A program made the position numbers and the translations under genes. Of a stretch of 64,000 nt of DNA, positions 39,621-55,792 are shown piece by piece (within the stretch, counting starts at the first letter, position 1; every line of letters starts with the position of its first letter). This stretch comes from an uncultured Nitrospiraceae bacterium (GTDB taxonomy: Bacteria > Nitrospirota > Nitrospiria > Nitrospirales > Nitrospiraceae), in assembly GCA_963730935.1 (NCBI GenBank), contig CAVSTP010000004.1:1440001-1504000 (forward strand). The letters are read 5' to 3'. The notes under the pieces are model-generated. The model had not been told where the DNA came from. It searched no databases and worked only from the letters and a program-made list of their open reading frames with translations.

Positions 39621-41769
39621 GTGATCCCCAATTGGCGGATCGGAACCAAGCTGCTCGTCCTCACCGTCCCGCTCATCGCGGTAGCGACACTGCTGGCGAC
39701 ATGGACGCTGCACACGCGCAATGCAGAGCGCCTGCAGGAAATGCTCAAGCACCGCGCCCACAGCATTGCGGCTCAAGTCATGGCCGATCGGCAGTACTAC
39801 GGCGCTGTGGTCGTGCCCCGCGTGGGTGACCTGAAAGGCTCGCTCGGACCCGACTATCGTGACGTTCACGGGCGCTTTCCATTACCCGCGACCTTCGTGC
39901 GCGAGGTGTCCGAACAGCTCGCCCGTTCGGGAGACGGGTACATCACACGGCTGATCAGCCCCTGGCCGATCAACAAAGAAATGGGACCAAAAGATTCGTT
40001 CGAGACCGACGGATTCGCGGCGCTGGCCCATAGTCCCGGCGACCCGTTCGTGAGGACCGATACGGTGGAAGGCCGAGCGGTCATGCGGGTCCTGATGGCC
40101 GATGTTGCCACGTCGACCTCCTGCGTCAGCTGTCACAACGCCCATCCGCAGAGTCCCAAACATGATTTTCACCTCTACGATGTGATGGGCGGCCTGGAAG
40201 TCATCATCCCGATGGACCAGTATCTCGAGGAAACCCGGCAGGACATGGCAATGACGCTAGGCAGTGGACTAGTCCTGTGCTTCCTGGTGTTAGGCATCGT
40301 GTCCGTCGGCGCGCGGTGGACCGTGACCCGTCCGTTGGCTCACATCGCGGAGCGGATGGCGCAGTTCATGAGGCAGCAGCCGGATGAGCAGGTCTCGGGG
40401 CAAACACCGGCATTACCCAGCGGGGATGAAGCGGCCTACCTGACGCAATCGTTCTCCAAGATGGCGAGCGTCATTCGCTCGCAGCAGACCGCCTTGCAGG
40501 AAGCCAATGCCTCCTTGGAGCAACGCGTGCAGGAGCGAACGGCCGAGCTGCGCCGCACGATGGCCGAGAAAGAGCGCATCGGGAGCGAACTTCGAATCGC
40601 CAGCGAGATCCAGAAATCAATTCTGCCTCGCACGTTCCCGCCGTTCCCAGACCGCGAGGACTTCGAGATTTATGCGACGACGATCCCGGCGCTGGAAATG
40701 GGCGGAGATTTTTACGACTTCTTCTTGATCGATGACAAACGGCTCGGCGTCGTCATCGCCGATGTCTCGGGCAAAGGCGTCCCGGCGGCCATCTTCATGG
40801 CCGTCAGCCGCTCGCTCCTCAAAGCCACGGCGTTGGCGTCCGTCTCTCCGAGCGAATGTTTGGAACACGTCAATCGGCTGCTCTGCCCCGACAATGATTC
40901 CGCGATGTTCGTGACCGTCTTCTACGGCATCCTGCATACCGACACCGGGGAGTTGGAATTCAGCAACGGCGGCCATAACGTCCCCTATGTCATCGGCGGC
41001 GAGCGCATCGTCCCCGTCGGAACACCGGCGGCCATGGCACTTGGCGTCCTGAGACGATGCGCGGTATCACACCAGCCGCATGTCGCTCAACGCCGGCGAG
41101 ACGCTCCTGCTCTATACCGACGGGGTGACGGAAGCGATGGACGCCCAGGGCCACCTCTTCTCGACGCCGCGGTTCGAACAGACGCTTCAACGGCTGGCCG
41201 ACCAGCGGCCCGTGCACCTCCTCACGAAGCTGGTTGAGGACGTGCAAGCGTTCTCCAGCGGGGCCTTGCAGGCGGACGATATCACGCTGCTGGCGCTGCA
41301 ATATCGGCAGCCGGCCCTTCTGGAACTCACACTGGCCAATCGCTCCTCTGAACTGCAACGGCTGGCCTCGGAGTTGGAGCGGTTCGCACAGAACCATCGG
41401 ATTCCGGAGCCGGACGTGCACGCCGTGTCGTTGTCCCTCGACGAAGTCATCACGAACACCATCGCCTACGGCTACGACGATCAGGGAGCGCATGACATCC
41501 GGGTGCGTCTGACGCTGGCGAACGGTCGGCTGTCTGCCGAAGTCGAGGACGATGGACGGCCATTCAATCCGCTCACGGCTCCCAAACCGGATCTCACGAG
41601 CGGCGTCGAAGATCGGCCGGTGGGAGGACTCGGCATCCACCTGGTGCGATCGCTGATGGAGCAGGTCGACTATCATCGCGAATCCGGCAAGAATCACCTC
41701 ATCATGAGCAAGCGGCTGAGCGCGGTCGCGCAAGCCGAGACAAAGGCGGGACATCATGGAGATTTCTGA
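39621..41769 (+). CDS. Heme-c sensor (DUF3365/Tll0287-like) + HAMP + SpoIIE/PP2C phosphatase + anti-sigma-type HATPase fusion; frameshift near 41051
   Basis: CVSCH between two TMs, ELRIASEIQ, GGDFYDF, ADVSGKGVPAA, LLYTDGVTEA, DDIT, EVITN, DDGRPFNP and GGLGIHLV. Confidence 0.88.
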
Positions 41770-42518: not shown

Positions 42519-44140
42519 GTGAGACACGTGAGTCACCTGTTTGAGATAACTGCCACAATGTTGGCCGGCCTGGGATTGTTCTTTGTCGGCCTGAAGGAGG
42601 TCTCTCGTCAGCTCACCGCCATGGGAGGCTCTCGGCTCCGTGAGATGGTCACCCAGGCAAGCGCCAACTCCGCTGCCGGAGTCGTGTGGGGAATCGTTTC
42701 AGGCTTCTTCACGCAGAGCGGACGGACCACGTCCTATGTGGTGGCGAGCCTCGTTCACACCGGTGTGCTGCCCGTACGCCGCGCGATGCCGGTAGTCCTC
42801 TGGGCCAACACCGGCTGTTCCTTCATCACGGTGGCGGCATTCCTTCCTACCGAATCACTGATCCTCTTGCTGGTCGGCTCGGCGGGGCTGTGTTACGCAT
42901 ACGAGATTCCTTCTCGATGGCGCAACGTGTCGGGCGCACTGTTCTCGCTCGCGCTCATACTTTTAGGGCTCCTCCTGATCAAAAAGGGCTCCTCTGAACT
43001 TCTCACAATCTCCTGGGCTGCGACACTGTTCGAACTCATCGGCGATTCCGGGCTCCTTGCATTTGTCACAGGCGCGCTCCTCACACTGCTTGCCCAGTCG
43101 CACATCGCGATTATCCTCCTCGCGATCGCCATGGCCCAACCTGGCGTCTACGAATCAGAGCATATTTTCATGCAGGTGTACGGCACCTATGCCGGCTCCG
43201 CCGTCCTGACGTATGTGCTTGGGGTGAGCTTCAAGGGCGTCGCACGGCAGGTCGTGATTGCGCAGGCGTTGTATGGCCTCCTGGGAGCGGCGCTCTTCGT
43301 CGGACTGTTCTATACCGAGGAACTGACCGGCATTCCCTTGGTACAGGCGGCAGCCACTCGGGTGTCCGGACAGATCGCCGTCCAGACGGCGTTCGTGGCC
43401 ATCCTGTTCAGTGTGGTCACCTCTGTACTCCTGACGCTAGTGGCGAAGCCGTATCAAGCGTTCATCGCACGCTTCTGGCCATCCACCGAAGAGGATATGC
43501 TCGCGCACACCCGATACATCAATGAGGATGCCCTGAACCAGCCGGAAACAGCCCTCCTCCTCGCCGAAAAGGAGCACCTGCGGCTCGCCAAGCGGTTTCC
43601 GCTGTACCTCGACGCGCTCCGGAGCGACCGATTGGTCAGCGGACAGCCGGACCCATCGCGTCTACCACGCGGCGTTTCTTGGTATCGGCGAGCGCCTCAC
43701 AAACTTTCTGCGCGACGCCTTGCAACGCACCGATTCTGTAGAACTCGCCGAAAGACTGTTGAACCTCCGTAACCGTCAGGAACTGCTTAAAGGCATCGAA
43801 GAGGACCTGCTGCAACAGTACGAAGCGTTGCGCGCCCGGCCGGGTGGCGCCAAGGCCGCTCAACTGTGCGGAGCGATCGTCGAGGTCCTGGATACCATGT
43901 TGCAGACGATGCTTGAGGCAGCCGAAACCGGCGATCACGACGAGCTGGCACTACTCGGCGCCATGACGTCGGACCGGGGCGAGATGATGGAGCGGATTCG
44001 CAAGAAATATCTCGCAACCGAGGAAGAAGTGACGACGGAAGATCGGGCGCTGATTCTCGATGTCACCCATGGATTTCGAGCGAATCGTGTGGTCCCTTGG
44101 GCGGTATGGCGAGCTGCTCGCACGTAGCGCGACACGTTGA
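42519..44140 (+). CDS. Na+/Pi cotransporter family protein with PhoU-like C-terminus; frameshifts near 43659 and 44077
   Basis: LAGLGLFFVG, twin TQS/AQS motifs, WANTG and a helical C-terminus continuing through ORF 43720. Confidence 0.8.
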
Positions 44141-44154
44141 ACGGGCCTCTTCTC

Positions 44155-44320
44155 CCCTAAGAAGGCTTGGCTCCATCGGATCTCCCGATGCCACAGAACG
44201 ATCATCACCACCGCCAAACGATGGAACCCAGACCCATCCCGAGCAACATGCCATAGAATTCTGCCAGCCTCCATAGAACGCCAGCTGTGCTCATGAATAA
44301 GTCTCCTTCTGGCAGGCGGC
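44155..44320 (-). pseudogene. Degenerate 5' fragment of the 38926..39366 gene
   Basis: CCATCGGATCTC.CGA.GCCACA.AA.GATCATCACCAC...CCCAGACCCAT.CC.A.CAACATGCCATA...TTCTGC.AGCCTCCA.AGAACG matches 39228-39390. Confidence 0.85.
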
Positions 44321-44364
44321 AATTCATCCGGAGAGGATCTTCAATGAACGTTCACGGCGGATAC

Positions 44365-44610
44365 TTACCTGGATTGGTCTTGCTTGGATAAAGGATTGCG
44401 TACCGAGGCAGGGTACTGTCCACCATAATCGCACCGCGTTTCATACGCCGTGTCTTTCTTTATTTCATACGTCGCGCACGGCCGCCCATTTTCGTCTTGA
44501 GAATACCCGATCGCTTGCCGCTGTTTTTCGAAGAACTCACACCCGGACAACAAGGCGAGAACGCCGACGTATAAGAGCAGCCAACGGGGGCCATAAGATG
44601 TTAGTCCCAC
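44365..44610 (-). CDS. Small lipoprotein
   Basis: LSGC lipobox. Lies about 20 nt downstream of 44632..45108. Confidence 0.65.
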   Translation of the reverse strand: MGLTSYGPRWLLLYVGVLALLSGCEFFEKQRQAIGYSQDENGRPCATYEIKKDTAYETRCDYGGQYPASVRNPLSKQDQSR

Positions 44611-44631
44611 GATCTAATCAAGCTATGATGA

Positions 44632-45108
44632 CTATGCCTGTAAGTCTTTATCCCGCTTTAGCGGGGCTAATCCGACCGCATTGACAAAGTCCTTATACCA
44701 TTCGCTGGAGTATACATAGGTGTGAATTAAACCTTCGAATAAATAGCTAACCTCAACATACGCAATCATCCCAATGTATTGCGTGAAGGCTTCGATTTTA
44801 GCGGTATGAGTACGCCGCACTTGAGACGAGGCCTGAAAGACCTCATCGTAAGTGAGCGTCGATCGATGTAAATACATTGTCTTTGTGTCAAAGGACTTAG
44901 CAATTGATAGGAAGCTTTCCCAACGCGGGTCTTCGTCACGATCCCAGGCAGCTTTTGGAAAGCCTTTGTCCTCAATAGTGCCGTAAAAAATCGTAAAATG
45001 ATGCGTCTTGCAGTACGACTCTATCTCCTCAAAAACATCATAAGTCGTGTCCCCTCGCTTGCGTTTCGTCTCCGTCGTCAACCCGCCATGGTTTGATTCT
45101 GGGTTCAT
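44632..45108 (-). CDS. Hypothetical protein (candidate WYL-regulated)
   Basis: 158 aa, GGAGG RBS, AT-richer than flanks, upstream palindromic promoter. Confidence 0.75.
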   Translation of the reverse strand: MNPESNHGGLTTETKRKRGDTTYDVFEEIESYCKTHHFTIFYGTIEDKGFPKAAWDRDEDPRWESFLSIAKSFDTKTMYLHRSTLTYDEVFQASSQVRRTHTAKIEAFTQYIGMIAYVEVSYLFEGLIHTYVYSSEWYKDFVNAVGLAPLKRDKDLQA

Positions 45109-45141
45109 ATACCCTCCACAACCCTAACATTTGCCGTCGGC

Positions 45142-45175
45142 ATCGTAGCAGGAGAGTGTGACAAATAAGGTCACA
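45142..45175 (-). promoter_or_regulatory. Putative WYL-regulator operator/promoter, copy 3
   Basis: Minus strand TGTGACC-TTATT-TGTCAC-ACTCTCCTGC-TACGAT. The -10 box ends 33 nt before the ATG. Confidence 0.75.
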
Positions 45176-45600
45176 TCCTTAAAGTATTTGTGGATCGCGC
45201 AGAAAAATCCAATATTGTAGTGTTTCGCACGGAAAGCAGAATATCCGCATTTGCCTACTGGCAATCTATCTTCCCATCCCTACCCTCACAAGCTTAGGAG
45301 CGATCTTCAAATCGTCCAAACCTCAGGCCGAAGGTTCCTGACACCTCTTCCCACCCACCTTTCCCACCTTCAGACCCAGAACGAGTGCCTGTGTGACCGA
45401 ATGTGAATGGGCTCAAGCGAAATTGAAAGCCCATAGTTGTCACCGGCACCGATGGGATGGGTATTGGCGTCAGATTCTTTCGGCCGCTCAATCAGTTCTA
45501 AAGGGTTGTCCAGGCGATCTTAAGCGTCAAGAAAAGACTCCCGACCCCGATGATGCCCACTTATCGTAGCAGTTACAGGCAAGTCAACTTTGCTGGTGCC

Positions 45601-47304
45601 TCAGCAATTGTCATCAAGTCCAACATGTCGGAGGATATCCTCCTTCGCAGCTTGGTAACTAGTATGGCCGTCAAGGAGGTGACATACATTGACATTCTCA
45701 ACGCCTTGGACATGAATGGGGTGAAGTCCAGCTATGTCCTTGAATTCTAGTTCTGCAGTCCGGTACATGTAACCTAGGACCCAGTCCTTGGGGCAATACG
45801 CGTTGACGAGGCGACCTGCCACTATATTTCGGACTTGTTCCCACCGAGCCGCATCAGCCGAAAAGGCGCCTCCCATTAGAAGCACATGGTCAATTAGTCC
45901 TTTGGAGGGATCTCCGCTTTTTGCCAGATGCTCGAGTGCGTGAAATATCAGTCTAGCACCGAGTGAGAAGCCAATTAATGTGATCGGTCGCTTACCATGC
46001 TGCGCTGTTGCTAGGTGTTCAGCCAAAATTTTTGCTGCCTTCTCGGAACGATCACGTGCAACGGACCATGGACTGTCAATAATATTCGCCAAGCTCAAAA
46101 TTGCGGTAGGCCACGCGAACCTTCGTGCGGCTATGCGACAAGCATGACGAGCAAAGACATGAACTCCCATCAGGCCAGCACTCTGAAAGCCAAACATGCA
46201 CAGTGCTTTCCCGAGATCGAAAAGGTGCTGCGACTCCCAAATTAAGGCGTGGTGCTCACCATGTCCTGTAACCGTAGGAAGGTGACTCCAGGTTTCGACG
46301 GGATTGCTGCGTTCTGAGAAAAATCCAGACACAGCCAGAAAACAGTGCATCCCTTGACCATTGAGGTGCGCGTAACGGTACTCATCAACTTTGCCTACGC
46401 GGGAGGCTACCTTCTTGCCTACTAAGCCTCCGCCAGTGAGTCCAAGTGCCGCCGCTACTGTGGCAGTCCCTCCGGCCATCCCAGCTCCCCCGGCGGCTAC
46501 TGCGCCGCCGCCAAGTGTTGCTAAGCCCGCGCTCGTCGCTGCGGCGCCACTCAGTCCCAAGAAAAAGGTGCCGATTGCTCCACCAATTGCAGGCGCCGCG
46601 ATTGGTGTTAGTAGTACGGCACCGACTGCAGCGGCCGTGGCACCAGCGACAATTTTCCATCGTCGCTCCCGTTTTTGTTCATCGGATTCATTCTGCGTAT
46701 AAGTGGCAGGGGTTGTGCGTAGCTCTCGCGCCAGCTGGTCTTCAAGAGCTGTGATTTGGTTCCAAGGAATGCCGAACATCATCGCTACATACCGGAAGCC
46801 TTCCCGTTCGCGCGCATCATACTTGCCATCTGCCACGGTGGCGGTCAGCAGGTAAGAGAGAACTGTTGACCGGACCTTCTTACTTCTGACGGCCTTCCCG
46901 AACTTCGCTGGATCGGGTTGTTCTGCAACGAGTTGTAAGAGTTTGCCCTGGCTTGCCTTCGATAGCTTGAGATGTTCATACATGCGCCTGAGAAGACTCT
47001 GATCCATGAGCCCTGCCCTAGCGGACAGAGTGGTGAGTAGTGCCGCAACGTTGAAGCGGTCCTTGTCGGAAACATGTTGAAAGAGCAGTTTGTCTTTAGT
47101 GGCGTCTTCTTTTTTCACCTTGAAGCGAAGTCGGCGATCCGATTGCATCGTTCCGGCTTTCCCTTTTAGATTTCTACCGGTAGCATTCTTCTTCGCCTTT
47201 GCCCGCGGTTCTCGTTGACGTCTTTGACTTCGCGAAGAACCTTTTTGGATCGGCCTGCGAGATTTAGACCGTCCAGATGTATGTCTCGCCAACGACTTGC
47301 GCAA
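45601..47304 (-). CDS. DUF726/TMCO4-like alpha/beta hydrolase with N-terminal TerB-like region
   Basis: ADGKYDARERE TerB-like motif, Gly/Ala-rich hydrophobic tract, IDSPWSVARDRS, RPITLIGFSLGAR, GRLVNAY...DWVL and GHTSY. Start uncertain. Confidence 0.82.
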   Translation of the reverse strand: MRKSLARHTSGRSKSRRPIQKGSSRSQRRQREPRAKAKKNATGRNLKGKAGTMQSDRRLRFKVKKEDATKDKLLFQHVSDKDRFNVAALLTTLSARAGLMDQSLLRRMYEHLKLSKASQGKLLQLVAEQPDPAKFGKAVRSKKVRSTVLSYLLTATVADGKYDAREREGFRYVAMMFGIPWNQITALEDQLARELRTTPATYTQNESDEQKRERRWKIVAGATAAAVGAVLLTPIAAPAIGGAIGTFFLGLSGAAATSAGLATLGGGAVAAGGAGMAGGTATVAAALGLTGGGLVGKKVASRVGKVDEYRYAHLNGQGMHCFLAVSGFFSERSNPVETWSHLPTVTGHGEHHALIWESQHLFDLGKALCMFGFQSAGLMGVHVFARHACRIAARRFAWPTAILSLANIIDSPWSVARDRSEKAAKILAEHLATAQHGKRPITLIGFSLGARLIFHALEHLAKSGDPSKGLIDHVLLMGGAFSADAARWEQVRNIVAGRLVNAYCPKDWVLGYMYRTAELEFKDIAGLHPIHVQGVENVNVCHLLDGHTSYQAAKEDILRHVGLDDNC

Positions 47305-47452
47305 TTAGGTCTTCCGCCTTCTCATAACAACGTCCGCCTGTCTGAAACTGTCTGGAATCTTTTATAATGGAAGCGCTAGCTGGAACGCCATGAGCCAAAG
47401 TGGCCGCAGCTTCACGAGCTTTTCGGTCGTCTCTAAATGATTATTCTGGAAC

Positions 47453-47806
47453 TTATCCCGTCGCTCTTTTCACCATCGGAGAGCACGCTAACCATATGTC
47501 TGCAATTGCTCGAACAATGGATTTTTCTCCCACGGTTGGACACGTGTCATATGGAAACGAGCAGCCTATCTGAAATTCCAAATTTGACCGTCGATGAGTG
47601 AGAGCCTCGTACGCCGCCTTGACCCACTCCGCTTGTCGCTTTGTTGGGCCGCGATATCGGCTTGAAGCAGGGAGAGCCGTTCGAGCATCAAACACTAACT
47701 GGCAATCCGGCACACCGTGCGAACGTCGACTCGAAAAGTGTCGCTGAAGCACGATAATTTGTGGAGCGTATCCTTTTACTCTTTTCAGTGCTCGAATGTT
47801 TCGCAT
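47453..47806 (-). CDS. Hypothetical protein, probably the C-terminal remnant of a longer gene
   Basis: 117-aa ORF with no clear RBS and only short ORFs between it and the upstream promoter motif. Confidence 0.45.
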   Translation of the reverse strand: MRNIRALKRVKGYAPQIIVLQRHFSSRRSHGVPDCQLVFDARTALPASSRYRGPTKRQAEWVKAAYEALTHRRSNLEFQIGCSFPYDTCPTVGEKSIVRAIADIWLACSPMVKRATG

Positions 47807-47943
47807 GATTTCGTTTTACCTCTGTACAATCTGCCGGCTTAGGCGACTTGCACCGTTCCGATATGGCGATGCCCAGTCAGCGTTGGCTCAAACGCATACC
47901 GATTTTCGCTGGACAAAGCAATCTTTCAGAAGCTCTTGAGACG

Positions 47944-47977
47944 AGTGTACTCTTCGCGTGTGACAGAACAGGTCACA
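47944..47977 (-). promoter_or_regulatory. Putative WYL-regulator operator/promoter, copy 2
   Basis: Minus strand TGTGACC-TGTTC-TGTCAC-ACGCGAAGAG-TACACT. A one-mismatch extra site lies at 48051-48068. Confidence 0.75.
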
Positions 47978-48145
47978 GGCTGGAAAGGGAAAGTGTGTGC
48001 GGGGTTTCCGGTTAGTTAGAGAAGCCGCACGAAGAGGAAACTTAATTATCTGTCACATCCAGGGTCACGAGTCGAGCTGAGTCAGAGCGACGGCGGCGCA
48101 GGCTCCGGAGGGTATTCACAGCCGGCTATATAAGCTCGCTCTCCC

Positions 48146-49213
48146 CTACCCCGACTGTTGAATGGCGGAGAGGAGCCATTTGCCCTGCTGGTGCCGCATG
48201 AAGGTCCAGAGTTCCGTCGTGTCGGTGGGGCTCTGGTCGCTCCCCTCGATGAGATACCCCGGCTGTCCCGGCTGCTTGCTGGTGGACACCGTGTAGTCCC
48301 GCGCCGTCCATTGGAGTTTGGCCGTGGCGTAGTCCGTCCCCTCTTCCGTCCAAGATTCCTCGAGATCGGCTCTCGTGAGGACCACGTCTTCGACGTGATT
48401 TTCGACTTCCTGACTCGCCTGCTCGGCGAGGGCGGTGCTGAAGTAGGCCAGCATTTCAGGCGTGACGAACCGCCGCAAGGCGGCGAGGTCCTGCTTGCTC
48501 CAGGCGGTTTGAATGTCGATCAAGAGTTGCTGGAAGGCCGCCTTATCCCCCGCCGTGACCTCGCTCTCGACGGTCGCGGTCCGGAAAGGCGCGGCCGAAG
48601 AAGATGCAAAAGAAGATCCAATGGAAGAGGCGTCCAACAGGGACCGGGGCGCGTCCGTCCCCCGGTTCATCCCGGCGAACGCGGGCACGGGCTTGCGCCG
48701 GCGGGAAAAGTAATAGAGCACCCCGCCCGCCACGACCATAAGAAGGAGCATATCCACCGTGTTGAATCCGCTCGCATGGCTCGCCGCGCCGGCCTCCCCG
48801 TCCTCGCTGGTCTTGGCGGTACTGTCGGTGGCGCCGAAGAGCATATGGCCGATCCACGAGCCGGCGAGGCCGGCTGCGATGCCGGTCAATATGGGATGCC
48901 GCTGGATAAGAGACGGATTACTCTGGGCCGTCGGGGCCGGACTGGCTGTTGTTGGTGGCGGCGTGGCCGCCGGCGTCTTGGGCGCGGTCGATTGCTCGAT
49001 CGGCTTCCCGGAGTTTTGATCGTAGGTGCGTGACCCGCGGCTGCCCATGCTGCCCGATCCGCCGCCGCGGGAGCCGCCCGAAAACCCGCCTCCGCCCCCT
49101 CGCGCCTTGGCAAAGGAGACGGTCGGCACGCCGATGAGCGCACAGACGATGCAGGAGGCGATCAGTTTCTTGGTAATCACGAGCGATGTCCTTTCGGTTG
49201 CGGTCGTCGACAC
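48146..49213 (-). CDS. Tim44/TimA-domain putative adaptor protein
   Basis: AKARGG..SGSMGSRGSRTY, GLAGSWIGHML, IQTAWS..DL..LRRFVTPEM and ELWTF...W.LSAIQQ. Confidence 0.9.
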   Translation of the reverse strand: MSTTATERTSLVITKKLIASCIVCALIGVPTVSFAKARGGGGGFSGGSRGGGSGSMGSRGSRTYDQNSGKPIEQSTAPKTPAATPPPTTASPAPTAQSNPSLIQRHPILTGIAAGLAGSWIGHMLFGATDSTAKTSEDGEAGAASHASGFNTVDMLLLMVVAGGVLYYFSRRRKPVPAFAGMNRGTDAPRSLLDASSIGSSFASSSAAPFRTATVESEVTAGDKAAFQQLLIDIQTAWSKQDLAALRRFVTPEMLAYFSTALAEQASQEVENHVEDVVLTRADLEESWTEEGTDYATAKLQWTARDYTVSTSKQPGQPGYLIEGSDQSPTDTTELWTFMRHQQGKWLLSAIQQSG

Positions 49214-49555
49214 GGCAACTGTCCTCCATCATCCTAACAGGTATGGGCGAGAGAAACCGAAGATTCGAAGGCCGTTCGACTCGCGCCGGCCGGGTCACTT
49301 CCAGGTCGAATTCATCCGATGCTTCCCACGCCGGCGGCCAACCAGCGCAATCGCAGGCAGGCCCTGATCGCCGCCCTCTTGGTGGCCTGGGCTGCCTGCT
49401 TGTTGGGCTAGACCTTTGCATCCTTCTAGACCCTGCTCGCGCTCAGTCCCTACAGTTATTGGCCGGTGCCCCGCCGGGAAGCGCTATGAAGACTGTTGCC
49501 GGTCGAAGTCCGGCGCCACGGCCGGGCGCGGAGCTTAAGCGGCGCTTCGATTGCG

Positions 49556-49762
49556 TCAGTAGGGCCGCCGGTTGTATTTGCGGTCGAACTCCTGCTGATC
49601 CAGCTGCTTTCTCATATGCTCAACGTCCAACTGCTGCTGCCGCTCGCGGAAGTAGTCGAACTTCTGCTGTTGCGGCGACCGATTCAGAGAGTCCTTGGCG
49701 ATCGCGGTGACGGCGCTATCGAAGCAGATTCCGAGCAAGATACCGATTAAAAACCCTCGCAT
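49556..49762 (-). CDS. Small exported hypothetical protein
   Basis: AGGAGG RBS, signal peptide and Q-rich helix. Confidence 0.7.
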   Translation of the reverse strand: MRGFLIGILLGICFDSAVTAIAKDSLNRSPQQQKFDYFRERQQQLDVEHMRKQLDQQEFDRKYNRRPY

Positions 49763-50010
49763 GGTGGCCTCCTGCCTGGGCATGTTCTCATGGCGATCAT
49801 CGGCCCTGAATGTTCCACCCTTTGCCGTATGGATTGTTCGGCTTGCGTCACTTGTGGTGGAGCGACGGCTGGAGGGGTGGCGCTTTGTGGAGTATTGGCC
49901 ACCTCTGCCGGCGTGTCCCCACTACCACTCGCACAACCTGAGACTAGCAATAGCAGCCCATAGCATCATTCGCATACATCACCCCACTCCTATGATTTAA
50001 CATTGGCATC

Positions 50011-50445
50011 TTACCGACCCCCTTCAATCCTCCATCCCTTCCCATACGGATTATTCGGGAATCGGGTTTGAACGGACTCCCGGCGCCGAATTGGTTATTG
50101 AGCGAGTCCGGCGAAAACGGCGATCCATAGCGGCCAAACTGGTTCGACGTCGAGTCCGCGATCGTAGGGATTGGCGCTCAGCTTGCCGCGGTAGTTGCCC
50201 TGCTGGTCGTACAGCCTCGGCGCGTCCGTCGCAAACGGGTTGGTCGCCGATGTATTGCTGAACGGACTGCCGTATGGACTGAAGGAGTTGTTGATGCCGT
50301 TGGGCGCGAAGGGGCTCCCCTTCCCGAACGGATTGCTGCTGGATTCGAAATCGAACGGATTGGCGCTGAGGTTGCCGAGGTCTTCGGCTTCGGCGTGGAC
50401 CGGAGCCATCAACAGAGCTGTCAGTAGGATCGATGCAGCGTTCAT
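50011..50445 (-). CDS. Secreted N/P/S/G-rich repeat protein; two compensating frameshifts near 50160 and 50058
   Basis: Signal peptide and two GxLSANPxD...SxxNxFGxxGSPF repeats. The corrected end reads SPNNPYGKGWRIEGGR*. ATGA overlap with the vWA gene. Confidence 0.75.
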
Positions 50446-51122
50446 GGTCGTCCCCCTTTCCCCTCCGCCTCGTTGCTCCCACTGTCCAATAGTGGCTTTT
50501 GAAGCGGGCGGAACGCTGTCTCTGAATGCCTCATCCCCCTCCGATAGCTCGCATTCATGTTGGATAGTTCATTGAACGTTTGGCCTATGTCGCTCTTCGA
50601 GAACGCCACTCGGCATTCCGACGCGATGCCTAAATCCTCGCCCGCCACCCAAACGTCGTGATCCGCTCCGAGATAGACGAACCGCCAGCCCTCCTTCTCG
50701 CATTCCTTGATAAGCGCAAAGATCTGTTTCCTGGTGTAGTCCTTCGAGGCATTCTCCAGACCGTCGGTCAGGATCACGCAGAGCTTCTTGAAGCCCTCCG
50801 GGGACTCCTGCCTGGCGGCGGTCAGCGTTTGGCCGATTGCGTCGTAGAGCGGCGTCGTGTCCTGCGGACGGTAGGTTTCGACGTCTAGCTCGGGGACCGT
50901 GGAGACTGGCACGCCGCGATAATGGACTTCTGTCCTGTGCGAGTTGAACAGGGTGAGCGTGAACCAGGTCGCAGCTGGCTCGTCCTTGAGCGACTTCACG
51001 TACTGATTGAAGCCCGTGATCGCCGCGCGTTTGCACGATTGCATTGAGCCGCTTTCATCGAGAATGAGCGTGACGTAGAGCGGTTGAGGTGCATTCTCTG
51101 AGATTCCGTCGTGTGCTTTCAT
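50442..51122 (-). CDS. Stand-alone von Willebrand factor A (vWA) domain protein
   Basis: MIDAS DESGSM, TPLYDAIG, ILTDGLENAS and GWRFVYLGA. Confidence 0.92.
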   Translation of the reverse strand: MKAHDGISENAPQPLYVTLILDESGSMQSCKRAAITGFNQYVKSLKDEPAATWFTLTLFNSHRTEVHYRGVPVSTVPELDVETYRPQDTTPLYDAIGQTLTAARQESPEGFKKLCVILTDGLENASKDYTRKQIFALIKECEKEGWRFVYLGADHDVWVAGEDLGIASECRVAFSKSDIGQTFNELSNMNASYRRGMRHSETAFRPLQKPLLDSGSNEAEGKGGRP

Positions 51123-51155
51123 GCTCGCCTCCTGGTTGAGTGTTTGAATGGAGGC

Positions 51156-51189
51156 ATTTTATAGAAGCGGTGTGACACGTGAGGTCACG
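51156..51189 (-). promoter_or_regulatory. Putative WYL-regulator operator/promoter, copy 1
   Basis: Minus strand CGTGACC-TCACG-TGTCAC-ACCGCTTCTA-TAAAAT. The -10 box ends 33 nt before the vWA ATG. Confidence 0.78.
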
Positions 51190-51203
51190 CTCAGAGGAAA
51201 AAA

Positions 51204-52276
51204 TTACGAGAGCTGAGCCGAAAGAGAGGGAGGAGCAGGAATGTCAGGAAAGACGCTTGGTTGCGGGGGATCCGTTCGGAAGCCGGCTCCGGCAGCTGCA
51301 TGAAAAATGCGGCGGGATTCGGTCTCCACGGCGGCCCTCAGACTAGTCAGGCCGAACGACACCGAACGCCGCTGCCGAAGCTTAAGACCCAGCCGACGAG
51401 CTCGCGGCTGTCGGCAACGGTCAGGGTCATAAGCATCCCGCCATTCTTCAAGGACGTGAGCTTCTGAGTGGGATGCCAGAGGCGGTCTTTCGCCCAGGCC
51501 GCGGTGGCCTTGTCGAACCGCAGGGCCACGTCGATTGGCCTCCCGCGCATGACGGTCAACGAGTCCCGCACGAACGCCTCCAGGTCGAAGCCAAGCGGCA
51601 TCTGGTAGGGGTGGTCGGTGAGTGTCACCGCGCGCATGCGCTCGACGGCAAACATGCGGGGTTCCTTTCGCTGGTGGCAATAACCGACCAGATAGAGCCC
51701 GCCCGAGGCATACCAGAGCCGGTAGGGATCGACTTCTCGGCGCGTCGTGCGTAGGCGCGACGCGGAATAGTAGCGCATCTGCACCGTTCGCTTCTTCGCG
51801 ATGGCCTGCGTGAGGCGGTCGATGGTTTCCCGATGCAGACGATAGGTCTTGTGCGGGCCTAAGCCAACGGCAAAGACGTTCTGCATCTGTTGCACGTAAT
51901 CGAGGGAATGCGGCGGCAGGAGCCGTGAAGCTTTGGCCATCGCCGATTCCAGTGCCGCCTGGATTTCGGTGCCGGCCAGCGGCTTGAGCAGCGATCGGCT
52001 GATCACGAGCGCCATCAACTCGGTCGGCGAAAACCCCAGCGCAGGCGCCTGACGGACGCCATCCATGAGACGCCAACGTACGCGGCCGTCGATGCGTTCG
52101 TTGATTAGCGGAAAGCCTGCCGATTCGAGCGCTTCCAAATCCCGCCGCACCGTCCGACCGTGCCGGGGATAATCGGCAGGCAACCGGCTGACGATTTCAT
52201 CGAGCGTGACGCCTCGCGGCGACTCCAGCAGTCGAAGCAAATGCCATTGGCGGGTAACCTGATCGTTCCGAGGCAT
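51204..52276 (-). CDS. HTH-WYL-WCX transcriptional regulator (PafBC/DriD-like); two 1-nt insertions near 51345-51362
   Basis: RTVRRDLEALESAGFP HTH, RREVDPYRL...LYLVGYC...RMFAVERM WYL, and WCX WHPTQ...ELVGWVLSFG. The corrected tail reads VRVVRPDSLRAAVETE. Confidence 0.93.
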
Positions 52277-52694
52277 AAGTGCTGAGACACTTACGCCCCC
52301 CGATGACCAAATGCAATCATTCGGAAGGAGGGGCGGAAGGAAGCGAACAGGTAATCGACGCTCCCAAGGCAAGCGGTGAATCGACGACGGGCAAGCTGTT
52401 GCCGAGACGCCTTGAAACTGGCTCGTAGGCGAGGCTCTATGCCCATAAAATAGGCAATGAGGTGCGGAGTTGCCACCTGAGAGGGTAAAAAGGCGCTTTT
52501 TTAATCATCCGCTCGTAGGCCGCCAACTGACCCTTTTAAGCCTTCCGGTCGCGTGCGACTACTACCTCTAATTTGCCGCCAGGGTCGCCACCAGTCGGCA
52601 ATCGCGCTTGTTTCCCTTATTCTCAGGTGCCTCTTGTTTACCCTTGCTCAGGCGCTTTATTGTGTACATGCAGGGGCCGCAGGGAAGAGTCGCG

Positions 52695-53225
52695 ATGAAC
52701 CGGATTCAGGTCAGCTTCCTCATTCTGCTCTACGGGACCCTCGCGTCCTGTGCGCACGCGCCGACGCCCCCGCCGGCACAGACGCCGCCGCCAGGCCACG
52801 CGTCGATCGGCGACTTTATGGATTACGTCTTGGAGCCGCTCGCCTTGCGGGTCGCGGATGAGAAGATCAGCGAAGCCAGTGCCGGCCTCAAACTGGCGCG
52901 GACGCCGAAAGGCGCCGTGCAGAGCGTCGCCAGCCTACTGCAGGATGTTCCGTGGGTCGGACCGCTGCTCAACTTTTCGACGGTGTCCCAGAAGGCCCGC
53001 CTTGAAGAGGATTTAGCGTGGCTCGAGACGCGGCGCATCCCGTTAAAACGAGAGTTATTGGATGTGTTCGTGTCGCGGACGGCTCACGCGGACGACACGT
53101 TCACGGTCTGCATTGACCGCGTCGAGCGCCGGTATCAAGCGCTGGATATCAACCGCTTCACCCGCCTACCTGACGGCCCCGGTCCCTGCGAACCGTTGCA
53201 GTTCAGTAGCCTGAAGAAAGCTTGA
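52695..53225 (+). CDS. Lipoprotein, hypothetical
   Basis: LASC lipobox and Pro-rich linker. Confidence 0.7.
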   Translation: MNRIQVSFLILLYGTLASCAHAPTPPPAQTPPPGHASIGDFMDYVLEPLALRVADEKISEASAGLKLARTPKGAVQSVASLLQDVPWVGPLLNFSTVSQKARLEEDLAWLETRRIPLKRELLDVFVSRTAHADDTFTVCIDRVERRYQALDINRFTRLPDGPGPCEPLQFSSLKKA

Positions 53226-53319
53226 GCCTCACAATTTTCGGGTCTCGTCAGCGAAACGCGAAGGTATCCCTCTCCGTTCTTAGCTTTGCGCCTGAAGTGC
53301 CGGCCCGTCGATGGCGAGC

Positions 53320-53680
53320 ACCCAAATGGTCCCTCCAAGCTCGCTCGTTTCACTCCTTTAGTGTTCCAGTCATGCTCATCGATGCTATCAATGCATCTCG
53401 CGTTTGTTTATACCTCTGACAAAGAGTTGTCAGTTGCGGGTGGCGTCGACCTGGGCGCCTATCTCACCCGCCCACCCAACCGCGCCAAGACGCGGTTTTC
53501 ACCAAGCGGCCGCAGCGTTCCCGAGAATCTCGCTCTAGCTCGTCATTCTTTTCAGGGGTGGCCCGCTTAGCCTCAAACGTGCGCGCGTGAAGGAGCACCG
53601 CCTAGCTGAACATACGATTGGTCTGGTGTGCCGCCTTCCGCGAGCACAAGGAGGCTAACGGGCCGCCCTGCCTCTTTACC
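53320..53680 (+). repeat. Modular repeat (core plus C and B fragments)
   Basis: AAATGGTCCCTCCAAGCTCGCTCGTTT, TCTCACCCGCCCA and CAAACGTGCGCGCG..GGAGCACCGCCT...ATACGATTGGTCTGGTGTGC. Confidence 0.8.
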
Positions 53681-53735
53681 CTACACCGGGCGGGGTGCCA
53701 AGCCGGACGGGCTGGTTGGCGACAGGACCCGCAAA

Positions 53736-55792
53736 TTAGCTTTTCGCCTGAAGTGCAGGTCCATCGATCGAGAGCGTGATATGGAACGCCGTCCCCTCCC
53801 CTTCCTTGCTTTCCACCGCAATCGTCCCTCCATGCGCATCCACGACATCTTTCACAATCTTCGTGCCGAGTCCCGTGCCCCCGACCTTTCGGCTGATCGC
53901 CTTGTACGAGAAGAGACTGTCGCGGACTTCCGGTGACATGCCCTTTCCCGTGTCAATCACCGACAGCACCACGTGCTTGCCCGATTCGTCCAGGCGGCCC
54001 CGAACCGTGACCGATCCACCCGCCGGAACCTCCGGGATCGCATTGTTGACCAGGTTATAGATGCATTAAACAGCCGGCTTTCATCAGCCCGGATGACCGG
54101 CAGCGTGTCGAGTCCCTCTTCGCGGAGCGCCACCTTACCTTCATCGGCCAGGATGCGAAGGGTCTGGTACACGTTCGACACGACGTCGGCCAGGCGGCAG
54201 GGCGCAAACTGCGGAGGCCGCGTCAGGCCTTTGACCGAATCGGCGATCTCTTTGACCCGGTCGTTGATGCGCCGCGAGTTTTGCTTGATCATTTCGGTTA
54301 GTTCATGGGTTCTCTCGCGCGCGGGCTTGGCGGCTGTCACTATTGACTCAGGCAATTTTGAAAAACCTTCGCTCAGTTCCTCTTCGAGCAACTCGGCGCC
54401 GCCCGTAATGGGCATGAGCAAATTCTTGAGGTCGTGCCCGATGTCTCCCAAGACCCGCGCCACTTCGCCGAGCCGTTGCTCCTCAACAAGGCGGGCTTCG
54501 GTTTGCCGGAGCTCTTCTTCCGTCCGCTTGCGATCGACGAACAGGCCGACTTTGATCCCGATATCCGCGACCATATCGAGCACATCCTGATCCGGCTCGC
54601 GGCTCTGCCGGCTGAAAAATTCCATGACGCCATACAGCTGCTCGCCTTTGCACACGGGAAAGGCAATCCCTCCCCGGAGGCCGACTGTCGTGGCAATCTC
54701 CGTGCGGCGGAACGTCGGATCGGCACAGACATCCGGGATCCAGATCGGCTTGCCGGTGGCCCAGACGCGGCCGATGAGTCCTTCCCCCCGTTGAAAGGTC
54801 CGGTCCCGGCTGTCGTCGACGAACCCGCCGGCTTCCACGTGCGGCGCATGCCACAGGGCGACAAAGCGGAGGGCTTGTATCTGTTCATCCCTACTCCAGA
54901 ACATACCCAGCTCCCACTCGAGGCTCTCCCCGAGGGCACGCAAGACTGCCTGAGCCGCATCTTTCAGGGTCGCCGACTCGGCCAGGGCCCTGGTCACCGC
55001 GTATTCCGAGGCCAGACGCCGTCCCGACCGCTTGATCACGGCCAGCGCTGCCCGTGTGTCGCCCACCATCCGCACGTAACCACGGCTCACATAGATCAAC
55101 GCGAGCACGTACGCGATGAGTCGAACGAGATGCCACACCCACCAGGCACTGTCCCAGGGTGCGGAAAACAGGAACATCACTTCGGCCAATCCGAAGAGCA
55201 ATCCCAGCGTCGCGAGCAGCTGATGTTCCGCCCTGCCGGTCCGGCCGGCCTCGAGCCAAAACCCCGCCGCACCGGCAAGGAACAAGACGGCTGCGAATCC
55301 ATTGACCGCGAGCGCAACGGGCGCAAATTGCTCCTGCGTTGTGAATCGTGGCAGTTGATAGGGAGCGACGACGACGAACAATCCGAAGGCCATCGTCCCG
55401 CATGTGACCAGGTAAGGAATGAGGTCCCTGGTCCGCCTCCCGAGCATCCCCGGCGGATGCCACACGAACGAGAAGGCCACGCCGCCCAGTAGACTCGCCG
55501 CGCTGCGCAAGAGCACGAAGCCCTGGTCCGAAGAGGAGACGGCGTGGAACCCTTCCAGGATCCCCATGCCCAGCAGCCCGCTCGCCAGCCCCTGGAGCCT
55601 CTCATCTTCCCACTCCGCTTTCCGTGCGAGTAACACGAGGCCCATCAGGACTGCCGCCAACCCGCCCAGGGCTTCCACCGTCGAATGAAGAGGTACGTGA
55701 ATCGAGATCTGGTGCGGCCAGAGGAAGTGAACGAGCAGACCGGAGAGCAGCGCGGCGGCGACCATACCGATCGGAATGAGAGCTCGAGCCAT
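53736..55792 (-). CDS. Membrane sensor histidine kinase (multi-TM + GAF + HisKA + HATPase); frameshift near 54061
   Basis: About 8 TMs, GAF GEGLIGRVW.TGKPIW, GHDLKN, DTGKGM and GGTGLGT. Confidence 0.88.

Follow-up and report, generated by a model that had tools for sequence, protein, structure and literature searches.

The 64,000-nt window analysed here, from an uncultured Nitrospiraceae bacterium (contig CAVSTP010000004.1, positions 1,440,001–1,504,000), carries three minus-strand copies of an operator–promoter element: a palindrome, GTGACC-N5-TGTCAC, followed after exactly 10 nt by a −10 box (Table 1). All three lie at most 6.2 kb downstream of the single gene in the genome with a WYL-domain match, which is oriented as they are. 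Judged by sequence comparison, each copy is very likely (probability about 0.82) a promoter for the housekeeping sigma factor that lacks a −35 box and depends on activation by the WYL protein. The best reading is a promoter of the type used by the activators DriD and DdaA, with TGAC arms in place of CGAC.

The preliminary description of this DNA had reported the three copies with their 10-nt register; rescanning recovered them, together with an ATG 33 nt past the end of copy 1 and of copy 3. Its statement that the window holds no further full copy extends to the whole 4.05-Mb genome, where the strict pattern (GTGACC-N5-TGTCAC-N10-TANNNT) matches three times, always inside the window; the order-0 chance expectation is 0.09 per genome and 0.0014 per window. 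Taken singly, the parts are at background. The bare palindrome GTGAC-N7-GTCAC occurs 11 times in the genome (0–9 for spacers of 3–13), the half-site TGTCAC-N10-TANNNT 10 times (3–11 for spacers of 5–15), and palindromes with one mismatch allowed show no excess in the window (4 against a shuffle mean of 2.25). A matrix built from 26 sites of other genomes ranks the copies as the top three in their own genome (38.9, 34.7 and 16.6), copy 2 being weak and barely above the fourth match at 16.0. That fourth match (C2:452956) has AATCTT as its −10 and overlaps a gene end, and was not counted. Against a relative's contig, the 12 differences listed of 22 around copy 2 spare both arms and the −10 box. 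A simple sigma-70 scan gave 6 sites (3.9 expected), with none of the three copies among those on the minus strand.

Co-occurrence ties the operator to the WYL protein. Across 401 genomes of the phylum, the strict pattern has 67 sites in 31 genomes (control, 1). It is present in 29 of the 59 genomes with a WYL match at E ≤ 1e-60 and in 2 of the 342 without, both of the latter 89–92% complete and belonging to the genus of a WYL-positive genome; for the family alone the split is 26 of 54 WYL-positive versus 0 of 34 WYL-negative genomes. All these counts include kin and hence are not independent, which makes P values look better than they are. A looser pattern found 29 sites in 18 of 61 related genomes and none in its reversed control, and positions that it leaves free are nonetheless conserved (C6 23/26, T7 23/26 and T12 24/26 sites). 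The same N7/N10 layout adjoins WYL genes of distant clades, including divergent driD-like layouts in Acidobacteriota and Bdellovibrionota, and site and cassette recur together in three Nitrospira records (L140, L160 and L182), which points to a Nitrospira-like host. The preliminary description had taken the palindrome for the site of the adjacent WYL protein and had named a background-level motif in WYL-less genomes as evidence to the contrary; the frequency there is 2 in 342, and co-occurrence, adjacency and fixed register make the assignment very probable. Viral contigs yielded no relative of the WYL protein and 111 motif matches, about the number expected by chance (by arithmetic), none with a WYL gene nearby and none paired. 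Separately, in one group of metagenome loci (L496, L502, L512, L549, L551 and L569) the operator is repeated three or four times, the boxes read GATAAT or TATAAT, and there is no WYL match within 1.5 kb.

The register to the −10 box is strict. At 38 loci picked by the protein alone, 56 sites lie outside the gene; xAxxxT stands at offset 10 in 34 of them and at any other offset from 6 to 14 in at most 4. The best match to the −35 consensus is 2 of 6 positions or fewer in 59 of 67 sites, bearing out the earlier proposal that the element occupies the −35 place, and a start codon follows the −10 box by 30–39 nt in 28 of the 52 sites having one in range.

An operator over the −35 position could equally occlude polymerase, and WYL repressors of defence operons are known (PMC13004042, PMC9186387), so a BrxR/CapW-like repressor released by single-stranded DNA (ssDNA) has to be considered. 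Yet these sites have no usable −35 box to repress, a rigid 10-nt register is an activator requirement, and DriD's, and by sequence the solved structures closest to the protein are those of DriD and PafBC; repression is thus improbable. Far-fetched, and the least probable of the alternatives, is that TGTCACA serves as the −35 element of an ECF41-type sigma factor (TGTCACA-n16-CGTC; PMC3426412) or that another regulator reads the palindrome. The ECF41 −35 consensus does equal the downstream arm, and CGTC lies 15 nt after that arm in copy 2, but an ECF41-type −10 is found in 3 of 72 phylum sites, it is the upstream arm and TANNNT that are conserved, and in different clades the site goes with the WYL gene; we rejected the ECF41 promoter on the 3/72 count. 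The palindrome might instead be a recombination or cassette-junction site marking where variable genes insert. This would suit the inverted arms, which flank a 7-bp core that is not symmetric, as well as the direct repeats, the differing genes after each copy, the one core common to 15 of 67 sites and the GC dip over copies 2 and 3. Against it, the arms are just 5–6 bp, 31 different cores occur in the 67 sites (the three in the window all differ), the −10 box sits strictly at offset 10 and the arm-end base varies with a WYL helix residue, making recombination a very improbable origin.

The best match of the WYL regulator in the PDB is full-length DriD (E 3.7e-16). The base-reading residues R37 and R41 of DriD align to identical residues (RTVRR here, RTAER in DriD), and Y168, R178, Y192 and R204 of the DriD ssDNA pocket are likewise identical; at R176 the alignment is ambiguous at a gap, and R207 is replaced by alanine. 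Because of this last change, also reported for DdaA, the ligand may differ from that of DriD. A single WYL gene fits a homodimer. No LexA domain was found in the genome, which is 99.9% complete.

As assembled, the last ~20 residues of the regulator are out of frame, with single extra bases near 51365 and 51347, and the C-terminal tail is found in another reading frame. A relative's contig, ~97% identical, lacks these extra bases. The Asn/Pro-repeat gene is similarly out of frame near 50159, by a base absent from contigs of three sequencing runs (run matches are contigs of relatives, in small shares, and served for frame comparison). Since close relatives' contigs lack the extra bases, assembly errors are likely in both genes, and the broken WYL frame is probably one. 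Several further genes and stretches (39621–41769, 42519–44127, 49279–49400 and 52296) appear split or depart from relatives by single-base indels, which fits an error-prone assembly.

In DriD, R37 and R41 read the site and E40 reads the outer C (PMC10853764). In 112 proteins, the helix residue pairs with the adjacent site as R/TGAC (47), Y/TGAC (9), W/TGAC (1), Q/CGAC (4), H/mixed (5) and Y/mixed (1), the labels being set by hand following the −10-proximal arm; proteins with no adjacent site have R (7), Y (7), Q (20), F (2) or an unparsed helix (9). Q/CGAC and H/mixed come from one clade each (clades taken from a quick tree), which makes two or three events plus DriD, so the helix–base match is a lead and not proof. 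N7 and N10 are kept in all clades with an assigned site. Under the filter used, no such site turned up within ~800 bp in the WYL clades whose helix is TAQRD or TIY/FRD. A second WYL clade of the same family (L046, L052, L417 and L422) has an exact DriD-type CGAC-N7-GTCG in a divergent layout, with TANNNT at offset 10.

The comparison with known systems follows the available text of the cited papers. In Caulobacter crescentus, the DriD palindrome lies across the −35 position, always equally far from the −10 (PMC13004042; see also PMC10853764 and PMC9186387), and by our own count on the printed oligonucleotides for didA and CCNA_03891 the arm is followed by 10 nt and a −10-like hexamer. The PafBC consensus, tGTCgg-N10-tA-N3-T, is in print as the preliminary description had quoted it (PMC8635444; PMC11804915). 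Its further suggestion, that the window combines two known geometries in a new way, does not stand: DriD already has the fixed distance, and PafBC the same register, so the architecture is of the DriD type rather than a new hybrid. DriD and the regulator described here share the winged helix-turn-helix–WYL–WCX organization, GAC-N7-GTC over the −35 without a −35 box, R37/R41 and, on the printed oligonucleotides, an inner asymmetry, in which C follows the first arm and T comes just ahead of the other. They differ in the arm ends (T/A here, C/G in DriD, CGXC-N7-GXCG), in the C-reading Glu40 (Arg here) and in R207. The layout is also distinct: here the WYL gene lies upstream of its sites and co-oriented, whereas driD is divergent with a site in its own upstream region. 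The targets here are vWA, repeat-protein and defence genes, as opposed to didA, bapE, recJ and dnaG. A second operator ~102 bp upstream, as found in this WYL group, is not described for DriD in the text available, where bapE has two putative sites.

DdaA, a homodimeric WYL activator of restriction–modification (R-M) and CRISPR-Cas operons in Moraxellaceae (PMC12392091, PMC13010146), is close in other respects, a likeness judged from its published description. Its site is related (CGWCA-N5-TGWCG), it has the same Arg-to-Ala change in the ssDNA strand (PMC12392091), it works in lineages without LexA, and its R-M/CRISPR targets have counterparts among the targets in relatives of the genome (cas9, cas3, cas6, hsdM, type III R-M and SspBCD), though not in the window. 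Unlike the present system, DdaA also controls recA, uvrA and ssb, from a CGWC-type site ~50 bp upstream of the start. PafBC of mycobacteria has the GTC triplet in the same register to the −10; it differs in being a heterodimer that uses one half-site (a non-palindromic −26 element) and sigma adaptation, against a single WYL gene and a full palindrome here. SiwR of Mycobacterium smegmatis likewise activates as a WYL homodimer; its regulon is small and local and its palindrome, which is imperfect, lies between −35 and −10, but it acts on divergent dinB-like targets (PMC10693628). The present system would work like DriD and DdaA, yet it is neither DriD proper (by site, Glu40 and layout), nor does it have the DdaA regulon (by recA), nor is it PafBC. 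It provides a predicted site and regulon for an unstudied group of WYL activators in Nitrospira-like bacteria, a group that probably extends to Acidobacteriota and further phyla. DriD, PafBC and this group seem to share the position of GTC relative to the −10, so the regulons of other WYL activators should be predictable.

By analogy with DriD, ssDNA arising from DNA damage or invading DNA would be sensed in the WYL domains of the homodimer and would free its winged helices. Two of these would bind TGAC-N7-GTCA at about −39 to −23, and the bound dimer would recruit RNA polymerase, with transcription expected to start ~6–7 nt after TANNNT.

Copy 2 has a second operator upstream (Table 1), which went unmentioned in the preliminary description; copies 1 and 3 have none. 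In 88 promoters with 300 bp of upstream sequence, 18 have a second operator upstream and none downstream, with 15 of the 18 pairs at 100–104 bp and the others at 57, 92 and 132 bp. With looser matching, 24 of 96 pair distances in the 40–300 bp range fall at 100–105 bp, and their spacers are barely alignable. We also scanned metagenomes for pairs 85–115 bp apart, keeping 54 of 102 loci after removing 48 that were duplicates or had the site repeated at least three times; some of these loci repeat genomes already counted. In 43 of the 54 a −10 box follows the downstream copy, at spacings of 92 bp (2, the spacing at copy 2), 99–107 bp (38, mode 101–102) and 112–113 bp (3), with none at 93–98 or 108–111 bp. 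The five outliers are one helical turn shorter or longer, to within 1 bp, and represent only about four independent events. At the 36 loci spaced by 100–105 bp, the −10 box follows the downstream copy in 33 and the upstream copy in none, and a WYL gene is nearby in 28.

The spacer retains an A at +36 in 21 of 24 pairs and in 30 of 33 metagenome pairs. Scores against the reverse-strand IHF consensus, WATCARXXXXTTR (PMC2709558), peak in this region at 4.1–4.5 of 9 (~2.6 elsewhere), which is suggestive only; the genome has four HU/IHF-family genes. The second operator, some ten turns upstream and itself unable to start transcription, would most likely let two dimers cooperate across a bent spacer. 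The phasing suggests that two WYL dimers may loop between the operators, to which we give a little less than an even chance. Just as tentatively, the whole could be a two-operator switch in which dimers 9, 10 or 11 turns apart touch one another over a spacer that an IHF-like protein bends, and so sharpen or gate the ssDNA-triggered induction of defence islands, with helix position 40 setting the outer base (E or Q reading C; R, Y or W reading T). Paired operators are typical of looping repressors, which counts in favour of the repressor model above.

Alternatively, the proximal sites are functional and the upstream copy is just left over from a past duplication, having become fixed where it overlaps the stop codon of the WYL gene. 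The TGA of the upstream operator is that stop codon in 14 of 34 loci, the pairs may share one ancestor, the upstream copy accompanies only 18 of 88 promoters, and spacings of 57 and 116 bp are off phase. A relic would, however, scarcely retain the entire 16-bp site rather than the TGA alone, or keep barely alignable spacers at 100–105 bp; pairs also persist where the upstream operator is detached from the stop codon, and the five outliers with −10 boxes keep to one turn less or more. We regard this origin as unlikely, though a good deal less so than the alternatives for the promoters themselves. An upstream operator that often starts at the WYL stop could possibly insulate the islands from WYL read-through. 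A search of the literature by title, covering few subscription papers, returned nothing relevant on this motif, on WYL proteins with Nitrospira or on WYL looping or IHF; as far as it reaches, we did not find the two-operator arrangement described for WYL activators. With its phased second operator, the arrangement adds to the DriD mechanism a feature that can be tested directly.

The regulon appears from its sequence context to be accessory. The conserved core order is WYL gene, site, vWA gene and repeat-protein gene, and in close relatives vWA is the gene that most often comes first behind the site (a cluster of 10 open reading frames (ORFs), in which one gene is represented twice by overlapping loci). 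Sites also stand before type I and III R-M operons, an HD-domain gene, a DrmD-like SNF2 gene, SspBCD and one CRISPR operon of type I-G. Of 59 scanned in other phyla, the first genes include ssb (2), cas3 (3), cas6, hsdM, gyrB, a Dam-class methylase and SNF2 helicases. The preliminary description had offered recA or repair genes as possible members, an expectation that failed: the site is present in 0 of 30 recA upstream regions, and the genome has no other strong site. A half-site at offset 9, found in 3 of 30 recA regions, is not conserved and was set aside. The vWA and Asn/Pro-repeat genes head variable islands, and many relatives add R-M, CRISPR, helicase/nuclease and further defence operons, in the manner of DdaA, but not recA. 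This suggests that WYL proteins activate R-M and CRISPR systems more widely than in Moraxellaceae, where such activation has been shown for DdaA.

Several points weigh against an activator promoter serving defence. The window's own copies are followed by no recognised defence system. Of 17 loci in the phylum set, 10 do have an R-M or cas gene (cas9 and two cas3 included) as one of the three genes that come first on the same strand, but these loci were hand-chosen by us from the 67 sites before annotation and the count has no background control. The strict pattern is missing from 30 of the 59 WYL-positive genomes, with relaxed versions in those inspected. A collection-wide scan gave at least 120 stretches, 80 with flanks, and only 10 of the 80 cross-phylum matches listed have a WYL gene within 2.5 kb (seven divergent, like driD), many others being perhaps chance. 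By arithmetic, a 15-base pattern gives ~1000 chance matches in the collection, so the remaining 70 are a mixture. The residue replaced at R207 is needed for full DriD activation, and the C-terminal end of the WYL gene is out of frame as assembled.

Table 1 Features of the window discussed in the text.
Feature	Position	Strand	Remarks
WYL regulator (winged helix-turn-helix–WYL–WCX)	52276–51347	−	Pfam WYL 2.8e-22, WCX 3.5e-10; recognition helix RTVRRD
Copy 1	51188–51156	−	Operator 51188–51172, 10 nt, −10 box TAAAAT 51161–51156
vWA protein, stand-alone, 226 residues	50442–51122	−	Pfam VWA 8.6e-6; after copy 1
Asn/Pro-repeat protein	50010–50445	−	Homolog cluster; N-terminal hydrophobic stretch; 3′ end approximate
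Tim44-like membrane protein	48146–49213	−	Pfam Tim44 4.7e-24; between copies 1 and 2
Auxiliary operator (putative)	48068–48052	−	One mismatch, no −10 box, 92 bp upstream of copy 2
Semi-conserved YAA element	48006–48018	−	TAA at +34–36 after auxiliary operator; weak, IHF-like only in relatives
Copy 2	47976–47944	−	Operator 47976–47960, 10 nt, −10 box TACACT 47949–47944
Leader, 135 nt	47800–47933	−	After copy 2; ~70% shared with G009 and G015; ends in ATG
117-residue ORF	47453–47806	−	3 homologs of 125–182 residues
TerB-like + DUF726 alpha/beta-hydrolase protein	45601–47148	−	Pfam DUF726 2.3e-73, TerB 0.007
Copy 3	45174–45142	−	Operator 45174–45158, 10 nt, −10 box TACGAT 45147–45142
158-residue protein	44632–45108	−	After copy 3; small conserved family, 12 homologs at 64–91% identity

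Among the genes around the copies, the Asn/Pro-repeat protein is probably exported, judging by its N terminus; it has no Pfam, NCBIfam or PADLOC family, and its Atlas matches are unnamed clusters only. Two families of such small proteins with hydrophobic N termini (50445–50010 in the window; L063:15014–15400; L082, L085 and L090) are the most constant genes after the site, often directly before R-M operons, and no family or function was found for them. The TerB-like/DUF726 protein has a weak PADLOC match (PDC-M09A). The 158-residue protein gave no Pfam match, no Atlas match and no metagenome loci.

Other genes recur after the site elsewhere. A stand-alone RelA/SpoT-type HD gene follows it directly in four loci (L062:11430–11993, L063:6085–6648, L064:9383–9946 and L068:13556–14119), where it stands before restriction or helicase genes. 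A small Cys-rich protein of RCRFSFKCP type, with no Pfam match, follows it in L083, L094, L095 and L174, once before cas3. In Vicinamibacterales (L135, L136, L142, L161, L193, L197, L200, L204 and L211) the site precedes small Cys-rich (CxxC) proteins, their genes often divergent from the WYL gene, and ssb follows the site in two records. In two Desulfobacterota records (L141 and L188) transposase genes of the IS1595 family follow the site at ~30 nt. One complete genome that lacks this WYL gene (G001, locus L079) retains a shortened vWA gene and a type I R-M operon; its sole site-like sequence is atypical and points away from both. Upstream of recA (L428 and L448–L467), a conserved ATTCT(T/C)(C/T)GCTAGG lies ~20 nt before a TATAAT box in most same-genus genomes; in the host, no LexA domain was found.

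GC content dips to 46–56% across 44500–48000. The leader after copy 2 holds a TTGCTT-N17-TATGCG (47921–47893) that would pass for an ordinary promoter; it has no Rfam match, nor has any RNA family been matched in 43000–54000. The 117-residue ORF behind it is probably what is left of the 3′ part of a longer gene that became joined to the leader; in G008, DNA homologous to this ORF has a different, coding-like upstream sequence in place of the leader. Leaders of ~135 nt (47933–47800 in the window; L488:1501–1633; L483:59–191) precede unrelated genes in three genomes, the gene remnant in the window and a TM0106-like helicase–nuclease in G009 among them, and the leader looks like a gene-capture junction.

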